A DNA stretch of 64,000 nt from Eukaryota sp. GEM-RC1 (GCA_040285855.1 JAUFOQ010000006.1:992001-1056000); one strand, 5' to 3'. Positions 1 to 64,000 are shown, numbered from the stretch's first letter. The notes: a model not told the origin generated them from the letters alone. Numbers and translations are program-made.

Positions 1-7
1 CAACTCA

Positions 8-1689
8 ATGGCACCAACCTCTTTACACAACATCAATCTCACAGATGACCAACGTGAGATCTTTAACGCAATCACTACCAGCAGACACAACTTCTTTGTC
101 ACTGGTGGTGCAGGATCAGGAAAATCTTATCTTTTACATGCTCTCAAATACTGGTGGAATAACGCAGGATCTCGTCTCATGCGTGCTAATGGTGAAATCT
201 TCTTCACTGCAACAACTGGGGTTGCCTCAACTGTTTTTGGTGGACAGACCATACACTCACTGTTTGGTTATAAGTTTATGAAAGAAGAAGAATCCATACA
301 TGATGTTATCAAATGTATGCCATCAAATGTCAAAATTTTGTTAAAAAATATTACTCCAAAAAATACAATGTTAATCATTGATGAAATTTCAATGTTATCC
401 TCCAATTTGTTTCAACGGGCGAGTGACATTTTGGGCGAACTTATGCACACGCAAAAATGTCACTCTCCGAAGAAACCATTTGGAGGAATTCAGATAATTT
501 GTTTTGGGGACTTTCTTCAATTAGCCCCTGTTGTGAAAAGTCTTGATGGAAAAGGAAATCGAAAAGTGGTAATTTCTGATTTCGCTTTTTCATCAAGAGC
601 TTGGAACAATTTAAATTTTAAATATTGTGAACTGGCTGGAAGTATTCGTCAGCAATCAGACTCAAAATTTTTTAATTTTCTAAATCAATTGAGATTGGGT
701 CTGTTAGATAATTTTATGAAATCAATTCTGCGTACTCATTTCGAAACAGCAGAATCTGTTGAAAACCCAACAATTTTATACGGAAAGAATACTGATGTTG
801 CTAGAGAAAATTTTAAACAATTCAAACTTCTGGCCAAAATTCAGATTCCATTGAATTTGTAGCTGTTGACAAATTCAATGAATCTGAATTAAAATCTCAA
901 ATCAGAAAAAGAAGTTCTAGATTTCCAGTCAATGAATCTAATTTGGAAAAATATTATGACATTGAAACTTCTGTGCTGACAAGTCGCTTGGATGACTTTG
1001 CTGAAAAAAAACTAGAATGCGTTGTGGGTGGACAAGTGATGTACACTCAAAATAAGCCTGAACTTGGACTAGTTAATGGTTCAAAAGGAGTTATTGTTAA
1101 TTTTTCAGATTCATATATTGATGTTCGGTTCAACGCTGAAGCAGAACCGAAAAGAATCAGTCAGTCAAGGTTTGCTATCGAACACTTGAACGAAATCGGA
1201 AGACCTGTTCAAGTGGCGAAAAGAATTCAGTTTCCGCTAAGACCTTGCTGGGCGATAACAGTGCATCGATCCCAAGGTTTAACAATTGACGGGATTGAAG
1301 TTGCTATCCAGTTTTGGGAATATGCCCAACTTTATGTGACCTTAAGTAGGGTTAGGTCTTGGAGGAGTTTAAAGATTTTAAGTATTGGAAGAAGTTATCC
1401 GGTACCAAATTTGGAATTGTACCAATGGTATTATTCAACTTTTCATCCTGTTAAACCATCCACTATTGATTTGTATGTTTTGGGAAATCAACATTGTCTT
1501 CAACGAGATTTCAATCATTTTAATTCATTGTTTGCAAACTTTTGTGCAGAATCGAGTGAACCAATTATGGATGATGTTGTTGTTCCTGAAATTGTTCATT
1601 GTGTTGATGAAGTTGTTGTTGATAATGTTGATGAACAAATTATTGAAAATAATGATAATCAAATTATTGACTTTGAAAAAATCGTTTAA
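8..1689 (+). CDS. PIF1-family (SF1B) DNA helicase, one frameshift near 828; possibly transposon-borne
   Basis: Walker A TGGAGSGKS, TTGVA..GGQTIHS, IIDEISML, PFGGIQII.FGDFLQLAPV, RQQSD, GLVNGSKG, RIQFPLRPCWAITVHRSQGLT, YVTLSRVR. ORFs 8..862 and 943..1689 join by a frame change. The frame is open to the window edge. Confidence 0.93.
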
Positions 1690-2849
1690 ATCATTTAGAC
1701 AAATCAAATTTATTTGAAACAGAAGCTGTACTATCAGGATCCGATTCTGGTGATGAATCTGATAGTGATACAATTTCAACAAGTTTAGATGATTTTGTTG
1801 TAAATGATGAACTTGAAGAAGATGAAACTAATATTCCTCCCAAATTTATTAATTGTGACTCAATTTTTAACAAAAATTCCCCAGAGATTGGTGTCAATAA
1901 GTCTAAACTTCCTCAGTTACCACGAAGCAACATTACTCTACCATCGCTTCCCCGTTTGAAGAAAACCCCTTTACCAACGAAGAATTTATTATTAAAAAAG
2001 AATGTCAGTGCTGGTATAGAAAGAAAAAGTTCCCAAGTATTTCCTCTTATTGATGATGAAAAGCGATTTTGTCTCAAGGAAGTTCAAACTGAAAGCTTTG
2101 AAAATGAAAAATGTGATTCCATATGTGAATATCAACAAACTGACAATATGACTTATGAAACAATATCATTGTCTCCTATTTTGGAGTATAATCGTGTTGT
2201 TACTTCAAAACAATTGAGAGTGGACTTAACTATTGGAATTCAGTCAATTGTCGATAATGTACTAGATTGTATTGGATCTGAATATGCATCAAGTATGGAA
2301 GTGAAAACAATAAGAAACTGTTACATTACCGATGTGATTAATAGGGATAATGTTGATGAACGTTATTGTAGTGATGTGCTTGTGGAATTGTTTCATGTTT
2401 TGAAAGAGTATTTGAAAAATGATGAAAAGATTGGGATGTGTGTTTTATTTGAATTATATTTAATTTTGAAAAGATTGGAAAATATAGGTAATTTTGATAG
2501 TTTCATTTTGTGTTACACATCTTGTAAAACACATCTTGTATTACAAATCTTGTATTACAAATCTTGTATTACAAATCTTGTATTACAAATCTTGTGTTAC
2601 ACATCTTGTATTACAAATCTTGTATTACAGATCTTGTGTTACACATCTTGTAAAACACATCTTGTATTACACATCTTGTGTTACAGATCTTGTGTTACAA
2701 ATGTTGTATTACAGATCTTGTGTTACACATCTTGTGTTACACATCTTGTAAAACACATCTTGTGTTACAGATCTTGTGTTACAGATCTTGTGTTACAAAT
2801 GTTGTATTACAGATCTTGTGTTACACATCTTGTGTTACACATCTTGTAA
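1677..2849 (+). CDS. Probable C-terminal acidic/low-complexity extension of the PIF1 protein, running into the tandem array
   Basis: The frame of ORF 1956..2849 is open back to the A-run at ~1676-1681 (NLFETEAVLSGSDSGDESDSD..SLDDFVVNDE). The last ~110 codons are tandem-repeat translation. Confidence 0.5.
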   Translation, partial: KNRLNHLDKSNLFETEAVLSGSDSGDESDSDTISTSLDDFVVNDELEEDETNIPPKFINCDSIFNKNSPEIGVNKSKLPQLPRSNITLPSLPRLKKTPLPTKNLLLKKNVSAGIERKSSQVFPLIDDEKRFCLKEVQTESFENEKCDSICEYQQTDNMTYETISLSPILEYNRVVTSKQLRVDLTIGIQSIVDNVLDCIGSEYASSMEVKTIRNCYITDVINRDNVDERYCSDVLVELFHVLKEYLKNDEKIGMCVLFELYLILKRLENIGNFDSFILCYTSCKTHLVLQILYYKSCITNLVLQILCYTSCITNLVLQILCYTSCKTHLVLHILCYRSCVTNVVLQILCYTSCVTHLVKHILCYRSCVTDLVLQMLYYRSCVTHLVLHIL

Positions 2850-2925
2850 AACACATCTTGTGTTACAGATCTTGTGTTTCAAATGTTGTATTACAGATCT
2901 TGTAAAACACATTTTGTGTTACAGA
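2509..2925. repeat. Minisatellite of 12-14 bp variant units (ACATCTTGTGTT / ACAAATCTTGTATT / ACAGATCTTGTGTT)
   Basis: Directly visible array of roughly 30 units sharing an ATCTTGT/ATGTTGT core, with no unique spacers. Confidence 0.95.
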
Positions 2926-3112
2926 AAGCACTTGTAGTTTTGTAAATTCTAATATAAAATAGTCAACAATTCAAAAGATCGAAGGTGTTCTTTTCAGTCA
3001 ACTCTAGACATTAATAGTGAATATCTTTCTTGGCTGGGTTAACACATTGATTAGTGAAGACAGATAAGAGTCATGTCTAGGTCAACAATTCATTACACAT
3101 ACGACACTTTCA

Positions 3113-3200
3113 TTACAAATGTTGTAGTTACAAATGTTGTATCACCAAATGTTGTAGTTACAAATGTTGTATCACCAAATGTTGTATCACCAAATGTTGT
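3113..3200. repeat. 15-bp tandem repeat (AAATGTTGTAGTTAC / AAATGTTGTATCACC)
   Basis: 5-6 units with the same ATGTTGTA core as the upstream array. Confidence 0.9.
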
Positions 3201-3350
3201 ACATGTAGTTATAACTTGGTGTCTTTGTGTCTTCTGATGAATGAAGCTTCATGGACTTGATGTCGTTGACCTTAGTCTCATTCCAGATAGCATCTGATAG
3301 AATTGAAAAATGCAGTCAAAAATGACTGAAGACACAGCAGTGTATTACAC

Positions 3351-3681
3351 GATCAGAGTTGTAGCAAACCAGCAGAGTTGTAGCAAACCTTAGTGTTTTC
3401 CTTTGGAGGATAAGATGTCAATGTGATGTATGTGTAGTAGGATGGTTCTAGTTGCACAACGTTGAGTTTATTCATGACATGGTTGAACACAGTTCACAAT
3501 TCTAAGAACGAATACCTGCAAACACGTCTCTATCTTGAAAGAAGCTCAACACTTGATATCAAACGATGTATGGAATCCATCAAAGAAGGTATAAGTGAAT
3601 CAGTTTGGGGATATGTGGTTATGGGGTGAAGAGTTTTTGGGGTAAAATGATTTTGGGGAGTATGCACCCCAAATGAATTCA
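3351..3681. repeat. Transposon terminus copy 1 (~330 bp), near-identical to 37475..37799
   Basis: Direct repeat that ends sharply at ...CCCCAAATGAATTCA in both copies. Terminal hairpin TTTGGGG-AGTATGCA-CCCCAAA. Confidence 0.9.
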
Positions 3682-3683
3682 AC

Positions 3684-5840
3684 ATGGGTGTTCGCGGTCT
3701 GTTGAGTTTTATTTCTAATCAGCTTAAGGATGATGTTCCTATGCCTTATCTTGAACGTATTAGGATCCACCGGCGTAATCCAACGCCATACCACTTTGCT
3801 GTTGACATGGGAAATTTCAAGGCGTCCCTCCTGAAAGACTTCATACCATTCCGCTCCTCTGGATTCAGTGCAGCCGATATGATGTTCCAATTGAGACAGC
3901 TGTTCTCTAAGTTCAAGGAATGTAATGTCTTCTTTCACTTTTACATTGAAACAATCACCAACGAAGATTTCCTACGCAAAACCTCAAACTTGGATCAAAC
4001 TTACACCGATAAACAGTGTTCCTCTCTCACTCCTGTCAATGCCAAAGTTAGGGATCCCCGTCCAGAAATTTTCACATGGATGATCCTCTCCGCTGCCCTA
4101 GACGTCAATGATCCTAACAGTTCCCACCAAAATTCCATCAGAATTGTTGAGGGTGAAGGAGATCCTTTTCTGGCCAATGCTGTCCAAAGAGGAAGTCTCG
4201 ATGCCGTGCTATCTGAAGATACTTTTGTATTTTTGATGGCTGCAAGCTGGCTTTACTGCGTGGAACGTGGAAGGATGCTTTGAAGAGACTACTCAACAAT
4301 CAGAACGTTGAAATTAATGTTTTCAACTCAACGGAGTTCAAAAGACACATGGGCCTTGGTCAACACGCGCTAATAGACTTTGCAACAATGATGGGTTGTG
4401 ACACCACAAAGCATCTTGCCGGAAACCGAAGTCTCCCAAAAACCCTCGAAAACTTGAATGAAAACTTCATCAAATGGAACGCAAAAATAGCTGCTAACTC
4501 TTCTCTTGCTGATCAAGTGGAAGCAGCACGAGAATTCTATCATTCAGCCAGAAATTCTTCTGATTTCATCGAATGTTCATCTGTTGATGATGCTATTAGA
4601 CAGACACTTCAACTCAAATCTCAAGATCCCACAGATGTCAAAGTACTATCACCATTCTCTTCTGAAACTCAAGAACAAAAAGTGAAGAAATTCTCTTCAA
4701 AGCAATATACCAGGCCTCTTAAACTGGGTATATTTGCGTTGTCTCTCAAAGATGATGGAAGGGACATGATTTGGAATCGTCCATACTACAACCCTGAAAC
4801 AAGCGAAGTTTCTGATTCAGAATTTGACTTTAACCGCCATCTTCCCTTTGCTCCTCCTCCTGACCTTCATAAAGCTGTTACTCTATTGTATCTCTTGGAG
4901 AGTCAGTCTCGGCATGGATCATCAGAAACAAGTTTTGAACCTAATGTCCATCATTCCTGGTTTGAAACGCTTGAATTTATACATAGTGAAAGTCCTCTCC
5001 TCTATCAACTTTGTCTCTACATTCGTTACTTAAACCAACGCCGTGTCTTTTTTACAAGAGGGATCTGAAGAAGAGACGAGGGCTCTACACCACCGTTTAA
5101 TTGACATTGTACTTCTTGCTTTAGTGTCAGTATTTCCTACTTGTGAAGCTAGAATTGATCTCCCAGTGATACAGTTACCTCTCAACTTCGATAGAGCCTC
5201 TATCTACTTATCTACTCTAGGCACTTACTGTGATTGGTTGGCTTATCTAGGTTTCAGTGATATAAGTGGGTTTCTCTCAATCGTGAACACTCAATTTCTA
5301 TCATTTCTACTGTCACTTCCTGAAATTAATGATTACCAGGACAATGAGAATGTCGAGTCTGCTGTAGAATGTGTGTGGAATTTATTGAGGTTAGTTGTTG
5401 AGTCTCGTCAGTTTCACCCACATTGTCGAACACTTTTGGAATTTGTTGTTCGTTTTGCTTTTGCCGACGTACAATGTCCTGCTGTTGCTCTTTCCCATCT
5501 ACCTCCTGTTGTGATTCAGCAGTTCCACTCTGGTTTTCAGAGAATCAAAAATGGAGAAACACGGCGTTTGTTACAAGCTGCTGAAGCTGTCAAAGAACGG
5601 ATCAAAAACCAATCAATTATCCATTGTAAACACGTAATCTCTGCTTCTAACACCACTATCCCCCATCACGTTGCTGTGAAGTGTTGTGACTTGCTCTTTC
5701 TGCATTACAAAGTTGATCTATCCCAATGTTTTGATGGTATTGAAATGGAATTCCTTCGTCGTCTCTATCAAAAACGGGAGTTAAATGGAGAGTATAGAAC
5801 TATTAAGAGGTTCTTTAAACGTCACTATACTAGGAAGTGA
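3684..5840 (+). CDS. Asteroid/FAM120-like PIN (XPG/FEN-type) domain protein, split over three frames
   Basis: N-terminal MGVRGLLSFI, FAVDMGNF, VEGEGDPFLA, AVLSEDT, HMGL..ALIDFATMMGCD. Frame changes near 4215-4280 and ~5050. Confidence 0.75.
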
Positions 5841-10717: not shown

Positions 10718-10791
10718 TCCCGCGTGGCGCAATTGGTTAACGCGTTCGACTCTTAATCGAACGATTGAGGGTTCGAGTCCCTCCGCGGGAG
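10718..10791 (+). tRNA. tRNA-Lys(CTT)
   Basis: Acceptor stem TCCCGCG/CGCGGGA, anticodon arm TTCGA-CTCTTAA-TCGAA, T-arm GAGGG-TTCGAGT-CCCTC, T-run terminator downstream. Confidence 0.95.
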
Positions 10792-10834: not shown

Positions 10835-11520
10835 AATTAAAAGGATTTTATGTTATAAATTAACGAAATACAAACAACTATTACTTAAAAGATATTAAAT
10901 GATCCACATCTACTCTTGAACTACCACGATACAATTTGTCCAGAATACGATTCAAATACTTTGGGAAACTTCTATATAAGGAAAAAACAATGCGATTACG
11001 CCAAAGAGACTGATTAAAATTTTTCCTATGATCACGGCACAACTTTGAAAAGGCATCAAAGAAATTTTCAGCAGCAAATCCAATATTACCAAGAATTGAA
11101 ATAGCAAACGGAATGAACTTAAAAGAAGAATACAAATTGGAATTCAGTTTGATCATTGTGTCAGAATATGTACTAATCTTTCTTTTTTCAGCTTTGGATA
11201 AATGATTTTCAGTATCACTCGAAACTGAATTCAAATATACTTTAGCACATGGATCAACAGTAGTAAAATCTATCACAGCTTGACAAGAATCAAGATATGG
11301 AACAATGAGATCACCTCGTCGAGAATTGGTAATATTATCATCACTATAATGCTTAAGAAGAGGTTCGATTTTCCCATTAAACCCATGACATTTAAACATT
11401 TCATACGTAACATCACGAACAGCATTGTGTAAAATTGATCTAAACTGAAGAATTTTTTTGCAACTAACAATGTGTCTGAAGTCAGCTTTTGGTCTCTTAT
11501 CACAACAACACATAAAAAAC
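10835..11520 (-). mobile_element. 3' part of an RLE-type (CRE/R2-group) non-LTR retrotransposon: zinc knuckle, restriction-like endonuclease and 3' UTR
   Basis: ORF 10881..11513: C.C..HIVSC, HNAVRD, EP, RRGDL, VIDFT, AEKRK..Y, FIPFAISILGNIG. Confidence 0.85.
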
Positions 11521-11539
11521 CAGTTTTTTTATTTTAAAA

Positions 11540-24799: not shown

Positions 24800-25643
24800 T
24801 CAATGTTAGTAGTAATGGTGGAAGAAATTCGCATACCAGTACACCTACAGTACCAAACCTCATCTTGAAATACTCTTACTTAACATCTAAACCTTATGAT
24901 CTTCATCTCAACAATGAGCCTCGAAATCTCATCATGTGTCTTTTAGAGGTAGTTTCAATAACATAACTTGATGGGAGACAGAATCTGCAACGAATCATTG
25001 GTATTGTAAAGTTACTAGTTGAGCAGTAAATTGAATGTCAATGATACTTGCAAAAATAGCCGACATTCATATACATATGACGAAAGTTGATCGCAAAGTC
25101 TCCAAAGGATTGCTCTTTTACCATTTTATCCATCAAAATACAAAGAGCAACAAGACAAAATATGTAAAAAAAACATATTTGTTGTTCCCAAGTACATGTA
25201 CGGGTTGTCCTTTCCCCCACTTTGGGCATAACATATTTGTAAATCAAAACAGCATGACTTTGTGAGTCCAATACATTTCAGTTCATATATGGGATGCTTT
25301 CCATCACTAAAGATTGTTTAGTATTATTAAATAAAATATTAATAAATCAAAAATTATGAACCCCAAATTGCTCTGATCTCTCGAATCTGAGATGGTTACC
25401 TGAAAAAATTGAATTGACAATGTAATTATTTGAATACAATGGTATGAAACATTGACCAATCAAATTTGCGAATTAGCCTCCTTGGGTCAAGACCACAAAA
25501 CAAATACCATATACATATAACATAAAACTGATGTCAGGTATTACCACTACTGCCAATACTACAACAGGAAAATTTAAACAGTTATTTTGTTTAGTTCAAA
25601 AAGACAAGTTGGAACGACTACATGTATCTACATCTGTTTGTAC

Positions 25644-28179: not shown

Positions 28180-29880
28180 AACTGAAGACCAGTACCAAGA
28201 ACTTCTTGAGCCAAAATTAACCGATATTTTCCGTGCTGATTTGAAGCAATCCAAAATATTTGACTTAGTTGTGATTTCCAGCCATGCTCTAGTCTACGCT
28301 GCAGAAGTAAAACTTGATCAAGGCAAAGGAGACTCGTTAAGTCAAATCATGCAATAATATGAATTATTTTGGGAAAAGCACAGAAATGTATTCACACAAT
28401 TTAAAAATTGTTGTCGTTTTTGTAGTAAAAATCAAAGATTATTTTCTCAAACTCTATAATGTCTAAGAGTGATCAATTGATCCTCTTCTTGAACTGGAGG
28501 GAAGAAGAACAAAACACTTCTGGTCTGAAAGTAGTAACGACTCTCTACAAAATTTGACAACTACAAATTTATCAATGTTTAAAATAATTAATTGAAATCC
28601 TGGAAATTACTTCCCGAATTATAAAATTAACGACCAACTCAAAAAAAAACAAAGTCATCAAAATTAATAACAATTGCTTTTTCTGATGAAATTCATCCCC
28701 TAGAACAATCAAAGTGTAGCCAATGGTAGGAAGTCTTAACAAATCAATCACGATTCTAGCACTCGTATCAAAAGGTCCGACTCTGATACCAAAGGGAATC
28801 ATCATCACAGACCAATCAGAGAAGAGATCACTATGATATAGGAAAGAACATAACCTGATTCACGATCGTTATAGGAAATAAAGAAAGTATAACGTGTGAA
28901 ATCAACAAAACCACTTGGTGAAGAACCAAAACAATTAACAACATATTCTGAAAAGAAAACTCAAGGTCCTCTTGAATTCTTTGATTTTGTGAATCTTTGA
29001 TGGGATTCAAATTGATTTTTGACCTGGTGACGTTAGATCTGGACGCAACGGTTGATCCATAGTTTGTGTTATAGAAGAATCTGTTGAGACCGTACATTAA
29101 TGTTTTTACATTGTAGTTGGGCAAACGTACTGCAGAGTGAAGTAACGTCATCAATCACATCAGAATTTTGACCTGTTTAGACTGATTTTGATCTCGAAAC
29201 ATCAATAATTAGTGGTTTCTGATCAATATCACCAGAAAAAGTGGAATATCAGGAAATTTAGAGCTTCTACCATCATCAACAAAGTAGCTCAATCAATCAA
29301 TTGGATTGCAATCGGCAATCAGAACAGATTGTTTCCAATTGCGTTCCAAAAGACTGTCCAGAATCAACAACATCACCAAGAGAATCAAAATCAAAATCAA
29401 CATAATCACCATCAATCAAACCCTCAATCAAAAGATCCCTAATGACACACTTATGATAATTGATACCAGCAGAGAACACAATTACTGAGAATTATCGAAT
29501 TAAATCAATTACTCTAGGAATATTAGCAAGAAGTCTCTGGTCATTTGTGAAGTGGTTCATGGTGGGGTAAGTAATAGGACCAATGGAGAGAAACCAGCAG
29601 TTGGTGGAAGCATTGTAAGGGGAAGTGACAATGTTCAAAGAGGATGTGACCTGAAGAGATTCTCCTGGGTGAGTGTAGACGGATGATAGAAGTCTCTGAG
29701 TTCAAAAAGAGGGGATCTTGATGAGAGGTTTAGGAGAGTGAAGTCGTAGCAAGAAAAGGAATCAAGAACAGTATTAGTACGAGCTTTGAAAGAGCCAATG
29801 CTTTGGTCTAGATTGAGACGACAAGAAGACTGGTCGTTGGAGGAGTAGATAGTGAAAGAGAAAGAATTGGCTGAAAACAA
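28180..29880 (-). repeat. Dispersed repeat family, copy A (inverted, partial)
   Basis: Reverse complement of ~47470-49190 and ~56250-57605. Includes a degenerate PD-(D/E)XK ORF at 28180-28440 on the + strand. Confidence 0.9.
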
Positions 29881-29912
29881 TGTTTATATAATCAAACTCT
29901 GCACCATGGATC

Positions 29913-30620
29913 CAGGAATGTAAAATAAATAAATATATTGTACAATAACAATAAATATATTTATTGTTATCTTATTGTGGACATCTCTCTCAACAATATA
30001 TTTATCTTCAAAACTCAACAATATACGATATATTTCAATAAGATAAGATAATTCAAGAACGTTTTTTTCTTGTTGTAACCTGATTTTTTCTTGATGTCAA
30101 TTTTGTATAAAGTAAGATTGTGTTGAAGCATTTGAACTCCAAGGTAACAGAGAACCATGCAATCACGGTGGCTTAAATAAAAGATTGAACAAACGTAAAC
30201 AGCAACGAACTAATCAAGATCCACAGTATATAGATTTAAATTGGATACCTGCAACTAGAAATGAAGATGGGATGCTTTTCAGTCTAGCTCAGAAGGACTT
30301 CAGGAAACACTCAACCAAATCGGAACTCAAAAGCGTTAGGAAAGCAACTTTCCTTGTTGTACAATGTTGATCTGTGGGATCAAACTTCTATTGGAAAAAT
30401 TTAAATAAAGTATCTCACATCTCAATACAATCAGGTTACAAGTGATGAATGTGATCAAATTCTTGCTCTTAGTGATTTGTTACTGTCGTTATTGAAGATA
30501 TATTTATTGTTTTGACTCAAGATAACCAATAAATAAGATAAGATATCAATTCAGACAATATATTTATTGTTGAATGTCAGAAAAACAATAAGATAACAAT
30601 AAGATATTTTTACATTGCTG
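29913..30620 (+). mobile_element. Non-autonomous hAT element (708 bp)
   Basis: TIRs CAGGAATGTAAAATA / CAGCAATGTAAAAATA; perfect 8-bp TSD CATGGATC (29905-29912, 30621-30628); internal YIDLNWIPAT.N...LFS resembles the hAT C-terminal dimerisation region. Confidence 0.9.
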
Positions 30621-30954
30621 CATGGATCAGAATTTTTATCTTCGAAAAACATAAAAAACACCCAAAGCAGGCTTGTAAAAAACGTTGCTCAAATATAACA
30701 AACGTCGTTTTTTACGTTTTTTCGAATTCCATAAAAAACGTTCAAAAGGGGCAACATATGACTTTCATCAGGGTTCTGCTAATAGCCTGAGATTTGTTAA
30801 TGAATCTCGTTTGTAAACAATACAGATTGTAAGGATGTTAGCATGAGAATATCACAATGATACTGTAAGAAAGAAACTTATGTCATTGAAATTGTGCGAC
30901 TACAGTTTTGTAATGAAAAAGCAGAGGTGCTTACCAATTCACTTTCTTTGCAAA

Positions 30955-31890: not shown

Positions 31891-33007
31891 ATGACTTCTA
31901 CCCCACATCTTCTACCTTTATCAGTCTCTCTTCATTCATGGAATGGCGATTTCTCCAGTATGCCGTAATATCTACTTGTTTATTACAGAAATTGCTTTCG
32001 TCGCAACTGGATCTTCTGATGTTTCAATTTATGAGGTCACTTTCTCTAAACCAACTAATGCCGTCTTCATGTACAATCAATCTCTTTCTGTTCATGCACA
32101 AACCATCATTGGACTCGATTGGTGTGGAGTAACTAATCGAATTGTTACATGTTCAGAGGATTGCTCTGTTCGTGTTTGGCATTTCAACGAGACGTCGAAA
32201 TCTTGGATGGAGAAAATTGTACACACAACCACTCGCGCTGTTCTCAGCCTCCATTGGTCTCCTGATGGTCAACATATAGCTCTAGGACATGGTCAAAAGG
32301 CTGTTTCAGTCTGCTACTTCGATGAATCGAACCAGTTCTGGACCGATGCCAACAGCAGTATCAAGAAGCCACACAAATCGGCAGTTACTTCAGTAGCTTG
32401 GTCTCCTAACAACCAACTAGTGGCTTCTGGTTGCACAGATTGTCATGTTCGCGTGTTCAATCCCTCTGCAAAGAAGGTCATGGCTGACGTGATAATTCCT
32501 TCTTGGGTTGATTCCCTGTCCTTTATAACTAATAACGAGATTGTATTCTCATGTCACAACTCTACACTACACTTTGTCACTATAGAACCATATACTCACG
32601 AAGTGTTGACACTTAAAGGCCTTCCAGAGTCTTGCATTCAAGTTGTTAGCCAAGACGTTATCGTTGCAGGGGGATACGATCGTAACCCACATTTGTATAA
32701 AAGATCTGACGATGGTACCTGGAGTTTCTACTCCGCTCTTGACCAACCAAAGTCCAAGGCTACATCAGCTCTAAGTAAGTTAACAGCTAGCTTTGAACAA
32801 GTTGATGTATCTGGTTCTGCCAAAAAGCCCGATTATTCTCTTAATACCATTCATCAGAATACCATCACGTGTATGTCTTTGATCAAGGGACGTGTGCAGA
32901 AGGAAACATCGAAGGACGATGTGGTGTCTGAAACATTGGTCACGGACACTGTGTTGTGTACTACGAGTTCTGATGGCAAGATGGTGTTATGGAAGCTTGA
33001 GTTGTAA
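31891..33007 (+). CDS. ARPC1: Arp2/3 complex subunit 1 (p41, WD40); intron 31958..31988
   Basis: Spliced N-terminus SLHSWNGDFSKIA..DVSIYE, IIGLDW..TNRIVTCSED, VCYFDESNQFW, IKKPHKSAVTSVAW, TIHQNTIT. Confidence 0.9.
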
Positions 33008-33049
33008 ATTCTAATAATAAATTTATTCTTTTGTTCCTAATGTTATACT

Positions 33050-33203
33050 GTGAATTTCATTCCAAATGCATAAGGACATAACCCTTCACATTTTCATGAT
33101 CTCATGAGCAAGCTCGTAAGCAAACTCATGAGCAAAACTCACAGTTTGAACAAATAAATGTCCGCATTCGCAAAGTCTTTTAAGACGAGCTAACTTCATA
33201 GAT
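33050..33203 (-). ncRNA. Putative Fanzor omega-RNA scaffold; guide would extend into ~33030-33049
   Basis: Directly 3' of the Fanzor stop. 13-bp stem CGAAUGC-GGACAU / AUGUCC-(UUAU)-GCAUUUG; hairpin CUCAUGAGU..GCU-UACG-AGC..GCUCAUGAG; GUCU-UAAA-AGAC hairpin; internal GUGAA complementary to terminal UUCAC. Confidence 0.7.
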
Positions 33204-36087
33204 TCAAGATTCCTGATCTTTCTGGTTTACGTGTGAGTCCTTGGGTACATCTTTCTTAGGCTTATTTGGACAAGTTGCTCTGTTATGTCCAGGTTGAAAA
33301 CATATACCACACTTGTTAGGACCTCTGACTTTTGTTAGAGGACGCTTTGCTTTACCCTTACCCTTACTCACAGTCTTTTTCTTAGGAATCTGATCTGTAT
33401 TCCCGCCATCCACGACAGGTGTTGTTTGAGATTTTGGTCTCTCGAGGATGGCAGGTCTACCTTGACCTTGAATGGTTCCATCTACAATATTGTAAATATT
33501 GATAGCAGAATTGAAGTCTCTATTCCAGAGGACATGACATTTAGCACATTCAACTAAGCCCCATGGTGAGACTTTTTTGCTCTTCAATCTTTCTTTCGAT
33601 AATGGCAACTGGTCAGTCCATTCATCATCAAAGTTACGCTGCACAATATTGTCTAATTGATTGTGTTCCATAATTTCCTTTTTTAATTCTTTTCTCTTCC
33701 TTCTGTAACTTCTTCTTCCAATGAGGATCAGTGACTTTTATCCTTTCAGGATTGGAACAGATACCTTCGTCGTTTCTGGAAACACACGCAGAACAACATT
33801 TGCTGGTCTTAAATTCATCAACTAGGAACACTTTAAATCCAAATTTTTTCAATAATTTCCGAATTGAAGCACCTTTCACAGTAGATGCTTTACCTCTTCT
33901 TCGACGAAAAGCAGTGTCGTTCCAGTCTCCATACCCAACAATGACTTCATCTGGGTTACCAAACTGGAGAGCAAATCTGTGAAGCATGTTTTTTCACTTC
34001 GTTCCTTTCTTGAATACTGTGTTAAGCGTCTACGTCTAAACCACTTTTCTTCGTAAATTCCTGCAGTAGTTCTTTGATCAGTAGTGGGTGATCGTAATAA
34101 GGAACAGGTAATTTCTTTACCAAGAACAAAAGCAGAATACTGAGTCAATTCACAAGATTTACTACCTGGTGAGTTAGAGCCCCATTGATCTAAAATTTGT
34201 TGCCCATTTATGTCAATGCGTCTGCCATCTGGAATGTGAATAAATTGGGTAGAGTATTGTTGTAACCGTTCGGACTCAGATAAACGGTGGAGATTATATC
34301 GTCTTATTTTCTTCTCCAGCTTCCTCTTCTTTCTCTTAGCTCTTTTTCTTTCCTTCCTTGTTTTTTTCTTTTCCATGGAGACTTTTTAATATCGGCATTG
34401 CGCTCCCCAGCAGTGTATCTGAATACTTTCCAATTATCACGATTTTTCAACTTGACAGTTGATGGTTTGTCAATAGTGGGTGCGTCTTTCCAATCCTTCA
34501 ATTCATTTTTTAATTTTTTCAAGCTTCCTTTTTTCTTTGATGATTTTGGAGAAATCTTTCTTCTTCTGAGTTTGGCTGATGTATCGAAACCTTCGATTTC
34601 CTTTTCCTCCTTAGATTTTAAAGAAGCACAGTACATCAAATCATGCTGATTAGGATCAATAGCAACAATTCTTTTTGATTTCAAATTTAAGTTTTGAATT
34701 TCTGTTGAACTCAAAGAATCAATGTACCTTTCAGTACTGGTGTGGTCAACCGCTTTCACCTTCTTATGAGGATTTCCTCTCCCATCAAGCAGATCTTTCC
34801 GCATCATCATTAAACTACAGCTAACTCCATCTGTAGAAATAGAACTGTATTTGAAGTCATGAGACAATGACTTTGGAAGACACTTTGGTTTCAAAACTGA
34901 GTGCCAAATATCTTTTCGAACGTCATCAAAGTTACCTTTAATTTCTGATGTATAAACTTCTTTAAACCATGAAGTATCCAACCTAATATGATTAGGAATC
35001 AATGATTTTGTCAGAGGAAAAGGATTATTGGCAGTAACACCAGTACAAGAGTCTTCAACAAGACGTTTCAAATACACTGCATGACTTAAGAATGTCAAAG
35101 GATCTACTTTTTCAGCATAATAGATTGTTTTTTCCATTTTACCTTCAAAAAAAGTAAACAAATAGTTAAAAAATAGTAAACTCAGTCTAGAATTGGGATC
35201 AAGAAACACTTCAACATCTTGAAAATTAATTTTTGAAATTTCCCCATTAATGATCAACTGTCTGACTTCATTAAGCTTTGTACACAACTCTTGTCGTTGA
35301 TTCTTATCAGTAAGCTTGTTAAGTCTATCTTTTTCAGGGTAACCAAATTAAATACCTGAAAAACATATTCGTGAAAGTGTTCACTCATGTTAGTCTTGTA
35401 ATTCGTTATAATTTCAGTAGCCATGTAATGCAATATACGAGATAAACGATGACTACTGGGAAACACAATCCTATCAAGTCCAACAGATCGAGCAGCTAGT
35501 TCTAAACGAGGAATGTAATGCATCAAGAAGTGTTGAGCAAACTGATTTTGAGTTGAGGCCTCATTTGGTTTAGAAGTTATGTTTGTTAACGATTCTTGTA
35601 CAGTCCTAATATGATTCTGATTGTTTACAAGTTTGTGGTCCCTAATCGTCATCATAGACAACACTTGTTCCATTGATTTCAACGTAAAAAAATTCTTCCA
35701 GTATGGCAATTCAATTTTGGCAGTTTGAATTTTAGTCCAAAGGTCAGGTTCAGGTTAAGGTTCATCACTCGCATCTTCAATATTTTCTAATTTAATAGGA
35801 GGAGTAGCAGCATCGATAGACTCTGAAGGTACATCTGTTTCTTCATCAGTTGACTCATCTGTATCAGAATTCATTTCTTCCTTAACAGTTACATTTGGAA
35901 CAGTAGCAGGCAGTAACTTCTGAATGTATTCTAAAATACCTGAATGGTGAAAATTATGAACAAAAAAATGTTTCAAAAAGAGAGAACCACGGACTCTTAC
36001 TTGGTGAGCTCTCTTAATACGAGATTCAATAAATTTAACCTTCGCTTTGGATACAACATTGTCTAGTCGTTTCTTAACCACTTTCAT
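33204..36087 (-). pseudogene. Fanzor (Fanzor1-like) RNA-guided RuvC endonuclease, ~960 codons, with four frameshifts and one in-frame TAA as assembled
   Basis: RuvC-I VAIDPN (~34655), ISTDGVSCSL, VIVGYGDW (~33930), rearranged RuvC-II VDEFKTSKCCSAC (~33815), zinc finger CAKC, RuvC-III WNRDFNSAINI (~33517). N-terminal VVK..L.....I...H....G.LFL. Confidence 0.92.
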
Positions 36088-37480
36088 TGGTGACTTTGAA
36101 CGTAAGGTTTGCTTTTGGGATCCAATAGGTCAGCCAACAAGTACTCAATCAGAGGTAATTGTTGAATTGAGTTCATCAACAATAGCGGTCTTGTCGATTC
36201 CTTGGCCCAAAGTTCATTTACTTTCTCCAAATTTCTTACAAATTTCTTTTTAATCTTATCGACCTTCACTTTGGGATTGTCTGGAACTAAAACATTAATA
36301 CTGTCAATTATGCCATGCAAGTTTTGGACATTATTGATCAATTGAACTTCATCAGGATCAGAGTCATGATTAAGTTCTTCCAAGCGTTTGACAGTTTCAT
36401 TTTTAGAAAAATTATTCATTTCAAGAAAAATTTGAACAACATTTTCCAAAAAACGGCCACCAGTAAAGACATAAAAATTCTTCAGTACAGCATTCAAATC
36501 GAGACTAAAAAACGGACCAAAAGTTGTTTCCTTACACCATTTGTTGAACCAAAAGGGAATATAGGGTTTAAATTCTGGAAAAGTAAACGTTGTATTGATT
36601 TTGAGGACTTGACAACGTGATACAAGAAAGGGAAATGTATCTAAGTGAAAGTCATAACTCACAAACAATCGTGGACAATGTTGAGTAATGAAGGAGATGA
36701 AGTTTTTAAGCATACTGGATTCACTATCTGAAATATGTAAAGTACACAAATCCAAGTTTGTAGTATCAAAATTGCCATGAGAAAATAAATGTTTTTCATT
36801 AAACTCATTGTGATCAATGATCTGGATGGAAATTGATACAATCGGATCAACAAAAGAATCACGTTTAACTTCTAATTGATCTTCAGCTTCACCTTCAACA
36901 GTTTCAATGTCATCATCATCTTGAACAAGTTGAACATTTTTGCCATTAATTCTTTCTTTTTTGGCAAAATCACTTTGAACATGAATTTAACAAAAAGTTG
37001 GCAGATTGTTCCAAAGTAAAGGGGAATTAAGAAAGTCTTGAATTTGTATTTCTTGTTCGATAGGCTCAGTGTGTAGATTTACTTCCATTTTATGGATTTC
37101 TTCTTGAATTGGCGATGGATACGACATAAAGGAGGCCTGTGATTTTGGTGGTAATTCAGATGGTGGTAATTCAGATGGCGATGATAGTTCAGATGGTGGT
37201 ACTTCAGATGATTCCAATGTGGACATACGGCGGTAAGTCTTCCGTATTGGAGTGCCACCAGTTGAAACAAGGGAGCTGATAGTTCTAAATTGATTTCGTT
37301 GAATTAAAGGTGAACCTCGTGGTGATGGAACATCTGAAATTTTGGCTTTACTTTTTTTAGTGCTTAAACCAGTAGATGTTATAGTGCTAGCAAGACGTGA
37401 ACCTGTGAGAGGAATTGAAGTGGTTGGATGTTCTTTACCGGCAGGAGGTTGAATGGGTAACGATGGTACAATAGGATCAT
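36084..37480 (-). CDS. 5'-truncated ORF with a low-complexity N-terminal part and a family-B DNA polymerase-type 3'-5' exonuclease-like domain; possibly fused to Fanzor
   Basis: Single frame with one TAA at 36987: ...DDIETVE...FVDPIVSISI...ISDSESSMLKNFISFITQHCPRLFVSYDFHLDTFPFLVSR...FSLDLNAVLK...LENVV. The stop overlaps the Fanzor ATG (ATGA). Confidence 0.65.
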
Positions 37481-37799
37481 AGTTGTAGCAAACCAGCAGA
37501 GTTGTAGCAAACCTTAGTGTTTTGTTTTGGAGGATAAGATGTCAATGTGATGTATGTGTTGTAGGATGGTTGTACAACGTTGAGTTTATTCATGACATGG
37601 ATGAACACGGTTCACAAGTCTAAGAACGAATACCTGCAAACACGTCTCTATCTTGAAAGAAGCTCAACACTTGATATCAAAAGATGTATGGAATCCATCA
37701 AAGAAGGTATAAGTGAATCAGTTTGGGGATATGTGGTTATGGGGTGAAGAGTTTTTGGGGTAAAATGATTTTGGGGAGTATGCACCCCAAATGAATTCA
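37475..37799. repeat. Transposon terminus copy 2
   Basis: Near-identical to 3351..3681. Confidence 0.9.
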
Positions 37800-38800
37800 G
37801 CAGTAGTGTAATTACGGGGTTTAACTCATACTTGGCAAAATAGCCGAACAAATACCAGGTAACCATTATTCACTTTGCCTTCTTTTCTAAGTAGAATAGA
37901 AAGCATTTCCAACACATTTTTCAACCATTCCAAGGTTGTAATTCCTCAAAAACATCAAGAAGATTGGGTTGTTCTTCATCATCAGACGAGTTTGTGACAA
38001 CAATTTACTCTTCAAGAACACCTACTAGTACTTGCACTTGCAAATCCAATTCATGTTCCAAGAATATATCTGAATCTAGTCAATCATTTAAGATTGGTGA
38101 TTTTGAGTTAACGATCGCCAAAACTAGTAAGCTCCACGGTAATTACTTTGGGCCTCTTCTAGTTGTATCACTTGATTCGAAATCTTCTGTGTCACTGAAG
38201 AACCTGATCACTGGATATGTTAGTTACAGATGGTATCCTCGTTGTCTTCATCAAAAACACCTTCGTTCTCGAGATGAAGTACATCAACACGAGATCTTTG
38301 ATCATCCCATATGTGCGTACTCCTACTTCCATTGGTAATTAATTAGTGCGTTATGTTTCAAAAATAGGGACAACACGTAGAAATAGATACAATTGAACAG
38401 TACATCTTTATCCAAAGATTGTTCTGGTACCATTTTATTCATAAAAATACAGAAAACACAGCATTAATTCAAAAAAAATACAAAAAATACAGTATTTATC
38501 GAGACTGAGAAAATACAAAAACACAAAAAAATACAGTATTTGTATTTTCCAAGTATGGTTTAACTCTTACATCGGAAGGTGATGACCACGTCTGAATCAG
38601 TCTGATTCAGACAGACTTGAACTATGCCAAAGGGTGTGACTTGATGTTATATAAATGTTACGATCCGCATTTACTATTCCCTTGACGATTTCGTTCAAAT
38701 AATCTTACTTTGAGAGATATTAAAACAGTAAAAGGTTAACGGGTAATCATCTGAGCAAATGACAAGACTCTTACAATACTTAATAAGCACTAGCCACCTC

Positions 38801-42098: not shown

Positions 42099-43490
42099 AT
42101 ACTAGTATGTTCGGTTCAACACGGTGTTGGAAAATATTCATCCCGTGTTGAGTGTTGGCACCAACACGACGTGACATGTCATTCAGCGTTACACGTTGTG
42201 ACGCGTCGAACGTCACGTCGACGTCGCACTGCGTCGACTTCTGATTTCATATTCCACGTCGCGTCACGTCGACTTCAGAATTTTGGCGTCTCGACGCGTC
42301 ACTTATATAAATGTCACTTCATGTTTGAATATGTTGACCCAGTTTATAGTGATTTGTTGACTCCGATTTTTTGGACAAAAGTTTCTCTAGTAGAACTTTG
42401 TATAAACAAGTTGTTTTATTTAATATGAATTTCAATTTTTGGTACAGTGTAGGTATAGTGTAGTTATTGGTCTAGCTGGTATAAAAATATTCAATGACTT
42501 TAATCGTTTATGTCGTTCTAATGACACGGTTTTTAATGGTACTGTATAGATTGATCGAATGATATTTGCTTTTTATAGAAGCATTTTCAAGTACAATGAG
42601 AATAATTTTCACCTAGCGGAATTTGCCTCTAAAATGTCGAAAAGAACGCAAAACATAAATTTGTCTATTGGTCCTGCTGGTGATCAATTTTTCAAGGATT
42701 TCGAAGAATTGTGTAAAGAAAAGAAGCGTAAGTTTAGAATGGCTGAATGGAAAAACCGTATAGTGTTTTCCATATATCGGAATATGCCTTTCTATTTCTC
42801 TAGATTAATTGAGAAATTGTACAAGTTTGGTGTGAAGGTTCATGTAGATAAACGTAATCTTTTACCGGGTGGTGATGACGTCGTTTGGATTTAATCTTAG
42901 TATTATTTGTTTGTTTGTTTTTACAATTTCATAGTTTGTAGAAAGGTTACCTTATTGGGTGCCGAATAAACATCTCTCTAAATTTGTCTTAGTGAGACTA
43001 ATTTCCACTGAGACTAAATGATGTGACCAGTGTATTTATGTTCCATTGATTCCATGTATAGGGATAATTCTCGTGTTGATGTGGAGAAACTAACTTCTTT
43101 CATTTTTTGAATTAGTGTGCACTGTCTTAATTTATTGTTGCAATTAAAGTCTTTAGTTCTGTTGTAATGTCATATGATGAATAATATTGCATTGACAATG
43201 CATTAACACATCTATTTTTTACTCATGTTTCAGCCGAACCAAGTTGATACATTGGAACTGATTTTCAATGATTCCAGAACTGATAACATGCAGATCTTAT
43301 CAATAATCCATCCATTTGAGTAAACTTTGGAGGTAAAACTGGAATTTTTCACCTTTATCCAATATAGTTTTATCAAGAACAGTAGAAATTTACCCAAATT
43401 CATTGAAGTGACATAAAGAATGACTTATCCAACACGTGTTGGACTTCTCGGTAACCGCATTCTACACGTGTTGAGGTGACTCCGAACATA
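42099..43490. mobile_element. TIR element with nested retroelement fragments
   Basis: TATGTTCGG / CCGAACATA inverted ends; flanking direct repeat GATTATGAC (42090-42098, 43491-43499); CAACAC/GTGTTG subterminal repeats. Confidence 0.6.
42466..42894 (+). mobile_element. Two tandem 3'-end fragments of RLE-type non-LTR elements
   Basis: IGLAGIKIFNDFNRLCR..*IDRMIFAFYRS followed by IGPAGDQFFKDFEELCK..WKNRIVFSIYRN; both parallel the C-terminus of ORF 10881..11513. Confidence 0.7.
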
Positions 43491-44993: not shown

Positions 44994-45728
44994 ATTATGT
45001 ATCGGAATTGTATGAACTTTCTTTGTCTTCCATAAACTAAAACATATAATTACAATTGATTTAAAAATGCGTAAATACTTCTAACATTATTCTAATCCGA
45101 ACTACTTAATAACTAATGCACCCACACTACACGCACTCTAGACGTCACACAGTATTATGCAGTACATAGTTTATCTCCATTGTTGATGTGCTATTCGTTA
45201 AAACGAGGCTTCTTCTTGTTTGACAAAACTCTGTCTGAAAGACTCTTTTGTTCACTGTTTACGTTCCCTGTACAAGGAAGAGTATGATAAGTGTGGTGTA
45301 TAAGACTTCGTATTGTACATCATGACTCTTCACTACGTCAGTTGCTCCAACACTGTTAGCCAAAGGTAATTGTATAGTCTCCAGTAGGATAATTTCCATT
45401 TATAAACTCCTTTTACCCTCTTTCATCCATATCAAGGTATCAACACATCACTATTAAAAAAGTGAATTTGAAGACGAATTCTTCTAGAAAAATGGCTCTC
45501 GAGACTTTCACAGAGCTATTGTAAAGTTTTCAATTAATGCAATTTTGTGTATTGGGTCATAGTAACACTGTTTTTTGGAGCCCTATTTGGAATTGGATTA
45601 TCATTATGTTACAACCATAGTTTTCAATTAATAGCTTCATGTCTCAGTAATTCCTAGAATTATTAGAGGTACATGAAACATCCATCTTCAATTTGTACAT
45701 TTAATGAGTATATATTATTTGTAATAAT

Positions 45729-48700
45729 TGTCACGCAAAGTACATGTTTGTGGTAAAGTGATCAAACCCACAATCAGAGAAACTGATCTAGTTATCCTTA
45801 GAACAAACACCGCTACGGTTCAAACAAACATCTTGGCGTCTTCTTGGAACATCAATAATCAGGGGTGGGGAAAATTGGATTGGCAATCCAATATTTCCAT
45901 TATATTAATATATATTGATACCAATATACAATTGGTAATCTAGGTCGTGTATTGTACATTCTGTTCTTAATTGTTATAGTGCACTATATTGGTAGTCTTG
46001 TTTTCATATTGATTTCACACGAAACTATATTCTTCTATATCTGTTGGTATTTTCTCGTCTATTGCTACTATGAGAAAGCTATCAAATATGGATTTGATAC
46101 TGTTTTTTCGTGAACATCGCTTTGGGAAAGGAGAATATTAGCAGTTATGTTAACCTCAATTTTTTTTCCAGGGCGTTTCTCCTGCATAAAAAAAGTCGTT
46201 AAGGCCTGCAGTTGTAATTGCACTACAAAATCACACTTTGGGACTTCCAGATTGTCTACACAATTTGTGATCAACATTGGTGTGCAGCAAATGAAGAAAC
46301 TAGTGATGACGAGTGAGTTTGTCATTAGTACCTATGAAGAATTAAACCATAAAATGACGTGTCATTTGTTGTTTCAAAATGTAACATAACACTTAAATTC
46401 ATCAATGAGAATGTTTCAAATCAGGGCCTGGAAAAATTGAATTGCCAATACAATTACTTGGACACATTGGTATGAACCATTGATTGGCTCAACATAAATC
46501 ATTGAAACATTGATTGATATAATGTTCAAACATTGCAACATTGGCCAATTGTATTTTGCGAATTATCCTATTTGACTCAACACTACAAATCGCACCACCA
46601 ATATGCAGCTGATGTAGATAGTCGTATTAACATGTTCTTTGCGAACAAAATACATAGATCGTATGATTTGGCTGTTCTACTACTAGTAGTAGTGGTAATA
46701 CTTGAAATATTGGGCCAATATCACTCATTGAAACATCGTTTCGACCAATATCTAACATTCAAACATTGATTGGGCCGATATCTAACATTCAAACATTGAT
46801 TGGTTTCATTTGAAACATTGTCATTGGCATTTAAATACCAATCATTGACATTGGCAGCCTGGTTTCAAATGTCACCTTGTCAAATGCTCATCAATCTTGT
46901 CATGTCACTCTATCTACAAATTCTACAACATCAAACCCAAGGACGTATTTCCTGAAGTCTTGTTCATGCCTTTTGTTGTTAATGACAATGTCGCTTCCTT
47001 CTCCGATGATTGCTTCTATTCTGTTGTCTGCATCGCATCAACCATTCTGGATTCAATGCTCGATAGTACTCCCCAGTATTTTGGTTCCAAACCCAAAGTT
47101 TCCTTGTCAGTTTGAATTAAGAGATTGCTGTCCAACAGCCAAAGTACCTTAGAATGTGCTTCTCTTGCACTTTTCTACCTCAACAAACTCCAAAAGTCCT
47201 GTCCCCATCTTCGATTCACTGGAAGTCTATATTCGTCGTTTGTATATGGTTGCTTTCATGCTATATATATTTGAACTCAATAGAGCTAATCCTGTCGCCT
47301 TTCTACCATCCTTCAATCTCTTTCATGTACAGCTACAGACTTCAATGTCTCTTTCTTCACTGACTTTTCAGTTGATGATGTCTACCCACAATCTTCAGTT
47401 TCTTTTCCCAAGTCTTTTGGGATGATGACTCTGCTTCGAAATGATCTTCTGAATCTAACTACTTAAATTCTGGGACTTTTACAACCACAATCTACTCCTC
47501 CAGACCAGTCTTCTTGTCGTCTCAGTCTAGACCAAAGCATTGGCTCTTTCAAAACTCGTACTAATACTCTTCTTGATTCCCTCTCCTGCTTTGACTTCAC
47601 TCCCCTAAACCTCTCATCAGGATATCCTCTCTATTTGAACTCAAAGACTTCTCTCATCCGTCTACGCTCACCCAGGAGAATCTCTTCAAGTCACATCCTC
47701 TTTGAACATCGTCACTTCCCCTTACAATGCATCTACCAACTGCTGGTTCCTCTCCATTGATCCTATTCCTTACCCCACCATGAACCACTTCACAAATGAC
47801 CGGAGACTTTATGGTAATATTCTTAGAGTGATTGATTTAATTCGATAATTCTCAATCACAGTATTTTCTACTGGTATTAAGTATCATAAGTATGTCATTA
47901 GGGATCTTTTGATTGAGGGTTTGATTGATGGTGATTATGTTGATTACTATTTTGATTCTTCTGGTGATTGTTGTTGATTCAGGACAGCTTTTTGGAACTC
48001 TATTGGAAACAATCTGTTCTGATTGCAATCCAATTGATTGATTGAACTACTTTGATGATGGTAGAAGCTCTAAAGTCCCTGATATTCCACTATTTCTGGT
48101 TATACCGATCGGAAATCACCATTTTTTGATGTTTCGAGATCAAAATCACTCTAAACAGGTCAAAATTCTGATGTGATTGATGACGTTACTTCACTCTGCA
48201 ATTCGTTTACTCAACTGCAATGTAAAAACATTAATGTACGGTCTCAACAGATTCTTCTATAACACAAACTATGGATCAATCGTTGCGTCCAGATCTAACG
48301 TCACCAGGTCAAAAATCACTTTGAATCCCATCAAAGGTTCATAAAATGAAAGAATTCAAGAGGATCTTGAGTTTTCTTTTCAGAATATGTTGTTAATTGT
48401 TTTGGTTCTTCACCAAGTGGTTTGTTGATTTCACACGTTATACTTTCTTTATTTCCTATAACAATCGTGAATCAGGTTATGTTCTTTCCTATATCTTAGT
48501 GATCTCTTCTCTGATTGGTCTGTGATGACGATTCCCTTTGGTATCAGAGTCGGACCTTTTGATACGAGTGCTAGAATCATGATTGATTTGTTACGACTTC
48601 CTACCATTGGCTACACTTCGATTGTTCTAGGGGATTAATTTCATCAGAAAGTCGACATTGTTTTTAATTTTGACGACTTTAGAGAAGGTAAGTCCTATTA

Positions 48701-49223
48701 CGAGTTTCAACCTTCATCACAATCTCAATTTGAAATTTGCATTTCAGGAAGTAATTTCCTGGATATTGAATTTAACTCATATCAATTAAATACTTTAAAT
48801 TCGATTTTTTTATTGTTTTCAAACATTTTATATATTGGTAATTGTCAAAATTTTGTAGAAAATCGTTACTACTTTCAGACCAGAAGGGTTATGTTCAACT
48901 TTCTCTCTAGTTCAAGAAGCTCTTAGAATGTGAGAAAATAATCTTTGATTTTTGCTAAAACAACGTGTCGAACACAACAATTTTTAAATTGTGTGAATAC
49001 ATTTCTGTTCTTTTCCCAAAATAATTCATAATACTGCATGACTTGAGTTAATGAGTCTCCTTTGCCTTGATCAAGTTTTACTTCTGCAGCGAAGACTAGA
49101 GCATGGCTGGAAATTACAGCCAAGTCAAATGTTTTTGATTGCTTAACATCAGTACCGAAGATATCGGTTAATATTGACTCAAGAAGTTCTTGTCATTGTT
49201 ATTGCTTAAGTTTTGCAACATCG
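45729..49223 (+). repeat. Dispersed repeat family, copy B
   Basis: Colinear with 54941..57636 and inverse to 28180..29880. Confidence 0.9.
46422..46861. mobile_element. ~440-bp TIR insertion within repeat copy B
   Basis: CAGG...CCTG ends; flanking direct repeat (G)TTTCAAAT; absent from copy C (empty site near 55645-55660). Related fragment near 25400-25470. Confidence 0.75.
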
Positions 49224-63890: not shown

Positions 63891-64000
63891 GAGTAGTTTT
63901 TAAGCATCACTGGTATTTTTGAAGAAGCATGGTATAAGTGTAATTCCGAATTTTCGTTGACTGGTATTTCTGTAATAATCCCTAATAAATACACTCAACA

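Follow-up and report, generated by a model that had tools for sequence, protein, structure and literature searches.

The 64,000-nucleotide (nt) stretch of Eukaryota sp. GEM-RC1 DNA analysed here (GCA_040285855.1, JAUFOQ010000006.1:992001-1056000; the window hereafter, with all coordinates counted from its first base) begins with a broken gene for a PIF1 helicase, which is followed by two tandem arrays and a terminal segment of ~330 bp. A second copy of this segment lies next to the pieces of a Fanzor1 gene (Table 1). The initial annotation, made from the sequence alone, had described the helicase gene, the arrays and the shared segment, all of which were confirmed, and had proposed a Helitron2/Helentron-like parent for both loci. 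Our verdict is that they represent one new family of Fanzor1 elements, for which the Helitron2 label is not earned.

Table 1. Features of the two loci and their flanks (window coordinates; strand empty where none applies)
Feature	Coordinates	Strand	Remarks
PIF1, N-terminal half	8..862	+	Own ATG at base 8; frameshift at A-run near 835
PIF1, C-terminal half	817..1689	+	Frameshift at A-run near 1683
PIF1, acidic then helical tail	1677..2500	+	3' limit approximate; in paralogues P0139, P0315 and P0277 tail and helicase share a frame
14-bp tandem array	2504..2923		30 units, near-palindromic TTGTA..ACA core
15-bp tandem array	3116..3201		5.7 units, core related to that of the 14-bp array
Subterminal DNA	3207..3239	-	Reading equals residues 2-12 of the Ulp1-linker model P0265
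Shared end, copy 1	3354..3681		Contains two 19-bp units, a unique central part, G-tracts and a hairpin; last bases GAATTCA
Terminal module of copy 1	3596..3681		G-tracts 3607-3658, hairpin 3652-3673, 15-nt inverted pair 3596-3610 / 3667-3681
Flank right of copy 1	3684..4283	+	Likely host gene, XPG-like; begins 2 nt past the end; weak XPG_I match in the next frame
Flank, WD40 host gene	31895..33007	+	Its stop bounds the far end
Predicted omega-RNA scaffold	33049..33143	-	Predicted three-way junction; may mark the Fanzor element's far end
Fanzor1 gene in pieces	33204..36126	-	Broken by frameshifts and one stop; retains RuvC D, E, D, the C4 zinc finger and a C-terminal zinc knuckle
Ser/Pro/Thr linker and PolB-type exonuclease-like domain	36087..37475	-	One in-frame stop
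Shared end, copy 2	37478..37799		An internal deletion has fused it to codon ~273 of the Ulp1-exonuclease-Fanzor gene

Comparison of the window with itself by blastn showed that positions 3351-3684 recur at 37475-37802 on the same strand, in direct orientation (95% identity, E=4e-151), and in a global alignment of the two end copies 313 of 328 columns are identical. The last 117 nt are the same in both, up to the common terminal GAATTCA, and the sequences diverge straight after it, so that the same final base claimed for the Fanzor locus was upheld. Four GGGG tracts, absent from the earlier description, are spaced at an exact 16-bp period (3607, 3623, 3639, 3655), and canonical G-quadruplex motifs were observed in the whole window only in this end and its copy (~1.5e-4 expected). 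The last 15 nt have an inner inverted copy, and a near-palindromic core is common to the 14-bp, 15-bp and 19-bp units. On the minus strand the end reads TGAATTCA..; it starts with T and contains a 7-bp stem and the inner inverted copy, with a fold z of only -1.67. Exact searches of metagenome and viral contigs yielded no match to the terminus. The first gene model right of copy 1 forms a one-member cluster, and thus position 3681 is likely a true boundary of the element. We take this flank to be XPG-like on the basis of a sub-threshold Pfam match and an N-terminal motif; it had no meaningful match in PDB. An A-rich short repeat is common to 38411-38451, in the right flank of copy 2, and 25101-25142, and this flank may itself be a repeat.

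The helicase gene matches Pfam family PF05970 on 2-859 (E=5e-33), with weak matches to Pif1 2B, SH3 and UvrD_C domains on 817-1686. It is spread over three frames, and since both shifts sit in A-runs, some of the breaks may be assembly errors. The tail of the protein has no family match in Pfam and no usable match in the Atlas; its region 1700-1830 encodes an acidic motif, F..E...SG.DSGD.....DF, conserved across both subfamilies of the gene. Altogether 41 PIF1 gene models were found, forming five 90% clusters (14, 2, 1, 5, and 19 members) in two subfamilies with 58-100% identity to the window copy, and the possibility of a single-copy PIF1 was thereby eliminated. All named close relatives are labelled Eukaryota sp. 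GEM-RC1, the next matches being ~31-41% identical. Three subfamily-A models (006863, 006867, and 006869) lie within seven locus tags on one contig and are possibly tandem copies. The model starts, examined in 37 sequences, coincide with the helicase N-terminus in 27 cases and lie later in ten and earlier in none, and an upstream Rep domain is present in 0 of 37 models; PIF1 is a stand-alone gene. In phylogenetic trees, suggested earlier as a check, the family did not fall inside the clade of named eukaryotic PIF1s and sits on a long branch without a supported sister (99 and 100 sequences out of 250 usable, 60 of them picked at random, with one Helentron-like sequence included). A scan of related loci detected 13 viral PIF1 loci of ~30% identity, the nearest being giant-virus genes.

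The second locus is a Fanzor1 gene by its motifs and structure matches. All three PDB matches are Fanzor1 proteins, the best one being SpuFz1 (8gkh, E=1e-20), and the RuvC D-E-D residues, the C4 zinc finger and the RD motif are aligned in P0324, P0330, P0331, P0342 and P0484 and present in the window pieces (P numbers denote collected protein models). The RuvC D, E, D residues are also intact in the 644-aa paralogues, and intact-looking Fanzor genes exist elsewhere. The C-terminal piece belongs to a 26-member cluster, and the linker/exonuclease region matches 29 models in ten clusters. Joint reading of these ten clusters pieced together one gene, in which tandem repeats and a 2A motif are followed by one or two Ulp1 protease domains, then by a Ser/Pro/Thr linker, a domain like the PolB exonuclease and finally the Fanzor1 N-terminus. 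The 2A-type pattern D(I/V)ExNPGP occurs in 16 collected proteins, one of which has a variant. P0342, labelled Eukaryota sp. TZLM3-RCL, is a 1473-aa protein whose unbroken frame spans 2A, linker, exonuclease and Fanzor, without Ulp1. The exonuclease domain has its closest counterparts in Pol delta and archaeal/phage PolB; its acidic residues are intact in P0342, and in the subfamily of the window and GEM-RC1 the catalytic positions are not aligned as D/E. A single-sequence AlphaFold model of P0324 had a pLDDT (predicted local distance difference test) of 35.9 and was not used. Exchange between subfamilies of Ulp1 cassettes, and of N-terminal repeat units of 33, 38, or more residues, is seen in P0261, P0269, P0265, and P0290 and suggests recombination among copies.

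The window locus covers only residues 273-736 of P0260. No Ulp1 coding DNA was found beyond 37799 on the right, and copy 2 was therefore not inserted into the gene; the paralogues have Ala where Asp would be at the junction, so its TCA is not gene-derived. Alignment with the paralogues thus reveals an internally deleted copy in which the end is fused to the linker. We considered and rejected an insertion of the end segment upstream of Fanzor, accompanied by a TCA duplication, since the gene is not continued past 37799. The earlier statement that the segment caps the Fanzor element therefore holds in that a copy is present there, but this copy meets the gene at a deletion junction within the coding region, not at its natural start. 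The related-locus scan revealed one other Fanzor locus, an ordinary transposase-linked one without exonuclease or PIF1, and no viral Fanzor locus.

At the opposite side of the Fanzor gene, the segment 33049-33150 is predicted to fold with z -4.38, none of 200 shuffles being as stable (the bounds were set after a first fold), and 33049-33143 is a candidate omega-RNA by this modelling. It has no match in Rfam and stops 42 nt short of the stop of the WD40 host gene. The candidate guide at 33029-33048 has elsewhere in the window no 15-nt match with fewer than two mismatches. No hairpin was detected beyond the weak match to the terminus at 33049-33075 (z 0.27), and no clear target duplication at the window Fanzor element, if the element ends near 33049. 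A T-T flank fits one of the two copies, and only with the end moved by one base.

The shared end and the multicopy genes support the proposed common origin, and we consider it very probable that both loci are damaged members of one family with this end in common. Also in agreement with the earlier proposal, the helicase and Fanzor lie on opposite strands relative to the end. A further link is provided by P0265, whose residues 2-12 are the minus-strand reading of window 3239-3207 (11 positions). The match ends where the 15-bp array of the window and the 38-residue repeat of P0265 itself begin, and other collected proteins have at most single 6-residue matches to the subterminal DNA. The start of P0265 being read from inside the PIF1 end, the shared end would be longer than 330 bp, likely ~480 bp by this comparison, and would not be a free small element. 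In a parent, both genes may have lain on the same strand, flanked by inverted copies of the end, with the Fanzor arm preceding the PIF1 arm.

Proximity of the two genes was measured in locus tags, which carry neither strand nor distance, in a genome of 14,000 tags, a number agreeing with the description of the assembly in PMC11316075. The analysis covered up to 15 members of each cluster, hence 15 of the 19 PIF1 and 15 of the 26 Fanzor cluster members, and left aside two second accessions. Divergent Fanzor/exonuclease models lie 2-3 tags from a PIF1 at 3 of 11 loci, always a subfamily-B PIF1 and each pair on one contig (0.09 expected, P ~1e-4; the subfamily split was made post hoc, among 36 comparisons). 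The three pairs have tags 001556/001558, 010083/010085 and 004850/004853. Apart from this post hoc choice, a number of observations weigh against the overall reading favoured here. None of the 48 loci with window-type Fanzor models is within three tags of a PIF1, the pooled proximity is 3/59 against 1.05 expected (P=0.09), and control repeats clump as well, with 4 of 13 control models within ten tags of a Fanzor model (P=0.02). The tag order is compatible with Fanzor preceding PIF1 on a single strand, inside inverted ends, in so far as strandless tags can tell. The P0265 link consists of one predicted gene model with a tblastn E of 0.38, and the DNA copies of the end known here are two, both in the window. 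The terminal hairpin described earlier does have a 7-bp stem, but is no stronger than in shuffles (z -0.35 to -1.93), and the match of the far end to the terminus is weak, with 63 of 6396 tiles equally good. In two related Fanzor-bearing assemblies, no close PIF1 relative was named among the matches, most of which are unnamed. Finally, no Rep or other mobilising gene was found in the 37 of 67 window open reading frames (ORFs) scanned, from base 1 rightward.

From the shared end, the copy numbers, the gene architecture, the stand-alone PIF1 and the deletion in the Fanzor copy, we infer a possible mode of movement, which together with the single family we consider about as probable as its negation. 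The same G-rich end would sit either downstream of PIF1 or upstream of the 2A-Ulp1-exonuclease-Fanzor1 gene, and a separate nicking enzyme is predicted to cut at it. PIF1 would then likely unwind the G-rich origin and peel off a strand, the arrays and G-tracts possibly serving as protein-binding origin sites, and the element would likely move by strand-displacement copy-and-paste. Fanzor likely cuts the empty alleles, so that the element would be retained. Strand displacement is suggested by the presence of a 5'-3' helicase, as in Helitrons (PMC8788227) and Polinton-type elements (PMC5499653), which carry one. The constant structured end, the internal deletions and the lack of a clear target duplication resemble elements of the HUH type. 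The element would work like a Helitron2 with Fanzor passengers, without necessarily belonging to that group.

One alternative, which appears unlikely, is a linear element bounded by long inverted repeats at its termini, mobilised in trans by a DDE transposase or integrase in the manner of Polintons, transpovirons or Mutator and carrying PIF1 and Fanzor as cargo on its two arms. The arrangement suits an inverted repeat of ~480 bp, with Fanzor facing inward and PIF1 outward. A Polinton with a stand-alone PIF1-clade helicase has been described (PMC5499653), the affinity of the closest viral PIF1s to giant viruses points the same way, and according to PMC10432273 a transposase is lacking between the two ends of Spu-1 Fanzor elements. 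However, the ORFs scanned near either locus gave no integrase, polymerase or capsid match, the window Fanzor element bears one such end only, and a target duplication is missing there if its end is at ~33049.

Movement may also require no transposase at all. PIF1 acts in break-induced replication, and an element with long inverted G-quadruplex-forming ends, its own PIF1, and a Fanzor fused to a resecting exonuclease and a SUMO-type protease could spread by guided breaks, into which PIF1 would drive its copying. We regard this scheme as improbable. The three tag pairs have one or two models between Fanzor and PIF1, leaving little room for a Rep, PIF1 models 6867 and 6869 are two tags apart, and the exonuclease motifs are intact in P0342; yet a guide derived from the flank should hit the empty allele only, which leaves dozens of dispersed loci unexplained, and a Rep may lack annotation, as the gene models of this assembly were predicted after repeat masking (PMC11316075).

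Still more doubtful is a true Helitron2 or Helentron in which a break just upstream of the helicase has disrupted RepHel. The minus-strand end does start with T, and its first 15 nt take part in a hairpin, a feature that PMC3627910 describes for the 5' ends of Helitron2 along with a reversed RepHel orientation, and P0142, a helicase-plus-endonuclease protein, scores 117 bits against the window PIF1. Nevertheless, the membership suggested by the initial annotation was not supported: PIF1 models of both subfamilies have their own start at the helicase and no upstream Rep, and a nine-copy PIF1 profile scores higher on cellular Pif1 (155.6 bits) than on Helraiser (77.4 bits). In P0139, P0277, P0283, and the window tail, no Pfam match to an AP endonuclease follows the helicase. 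None of the 120 longer PIF1 matches listed carries the Helitron Rep family. Helitron2 has a 3' asymmetric terminal inverted repeat (ATIR) 20-30 bp from the end, followed by a hairpin; at the far end here neither such an ATIR plus hairpin nor any hairpin past the weak match was found. Least probable, and largely refuted, is an independent 330-bp element with separate landing sites next to PIF1 and within the Fanzor gene. In its favour, both copies start after GATCA and finish in TCA as in a 3-bp duplication, but it conflicts with the missing resumption of the gene, the Ala at the junction, the P0265 link to DNA on the inner side of the segment and the array core in the 19-bp units.

Other repeats were observed in the window. 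Segments 10881-11528 (minus strand) and 42550-42894 (plus strand) resemble the restriction-like endonuclease end of a retrotransposon without long terminal repeats (non-LTR), a label that we presume from the motif. The former is one of 14 members of its cluster, and 90 nt separate it from a tRNA gene (10718-10791). The stretch 42930-42977 agrees with the C-terminal end of Fanzor model P0340 at 15 of 16 residues, and a remnant of this kind also has the tag adjacent to that of Fanzor model P0335, so that the repeat may be one that inserts into Fanzor elements. A broken Mutator-like (MULE) transposase with a SWIM finger occupies 61526-63906 on the minus strand, with inverted repeats (62265-62378, 63037-63116) unlike the shared end, and 29910-30625, with several inverted repeat pairs ~600 nt apart, resembles a miniature inverted-repeat transposable element (MITE). 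Three related repeats of 1.7-3.6 kb (28196-29865, 45611-49223, and 54798-57636; 77-89% identity) contain no long ORF and no Pfam match in the ORFs scanned.

How Fanzors benefit their transposons is described as an open question in PMC10432273 and PMC10288648. A young family with dozens of near-identical copies, in which Fanzor1 is paired with a helicase-bearing sister, offers many pairs of guide and empty site for testing the role of Fanzor. The natural fusion of a PolB-type exonuclease with an RNA-guided nuclease, present with all catalytic motifs in the single frame of P0342, should be directly assayable and relevant to genome-editing design. The word exonuclease does not occur in the main texts, as distinct from the supplements, of the Fanzor papers PMC10711439, PMC10530073, and PMC10432273, and the main text of PMC11316075 does not mention Fanzor. 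A literature search, mostly of titles, with passages of PMC6338049 and PMC10288648 and apart from survey supplements, did not reveal an architecture joining Fanzor with Pif1, an exonuclease domain, Ulp1, or a Polinton.

Among known systems, Polintons, transpovirons, and Tlr1 (PMC5499653) are similar in having a superfamily 1B (SF1B) helicase, a PolB-derived domain and possibly long inverted ends. However, their PolB remnant is a polymerisation domain fused to the helicase, whereas here an exonuclease domain is fused to Fanzor, and no capsid, ATPase, integrase, or protein-primed polymerase or its remnant was seen in the ORFs scanned at either locus. Spu-1, the element of SpuFz1 (PMC10432273), also has a structured RNA region between its stop codon and right end, many copies and no internal transposase found, but it is a 2-kb element with short inverted repeats and a lone Fanzor of ~640 aa, in contrast to the polyprotein of 1500-2000 aa and the helicase-bearing sister described here. 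Helitron1 ends in a 3' hairpin followed by CTRR, whereas both copies here end in GAATTCA. Helentrons and HINE/DINE-1 elements (PMC4067079, PMC11417382) share the internal tandem repeats, the terminal stem-loop, the PIF1-family helicase and the deletion derivatives; the present family differs from them in the absence of a Rep fusion and an AP endonuclease, in the G-tract array at its end and in a T-T target that fits one of two copies at best. Compared with CRe-1, -2, and -3 (Helitron2, Chlamydomonas; PMC3627910), it has a stand-alone PIF1 with no Rep seen instead of the fused RepHel of the CRe parent, no clear TTTT target or 3' ATIR plus hairpin, and a Fanzor fused to exonuclease, Ulp1, and 2A. 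Nevertheless, the CRe elements are likewise non-autonomous Fanzor1 elements with a hairpin at the shared end and internal deletions, and the long 5' end is common to them and their helicase-bearing parent.

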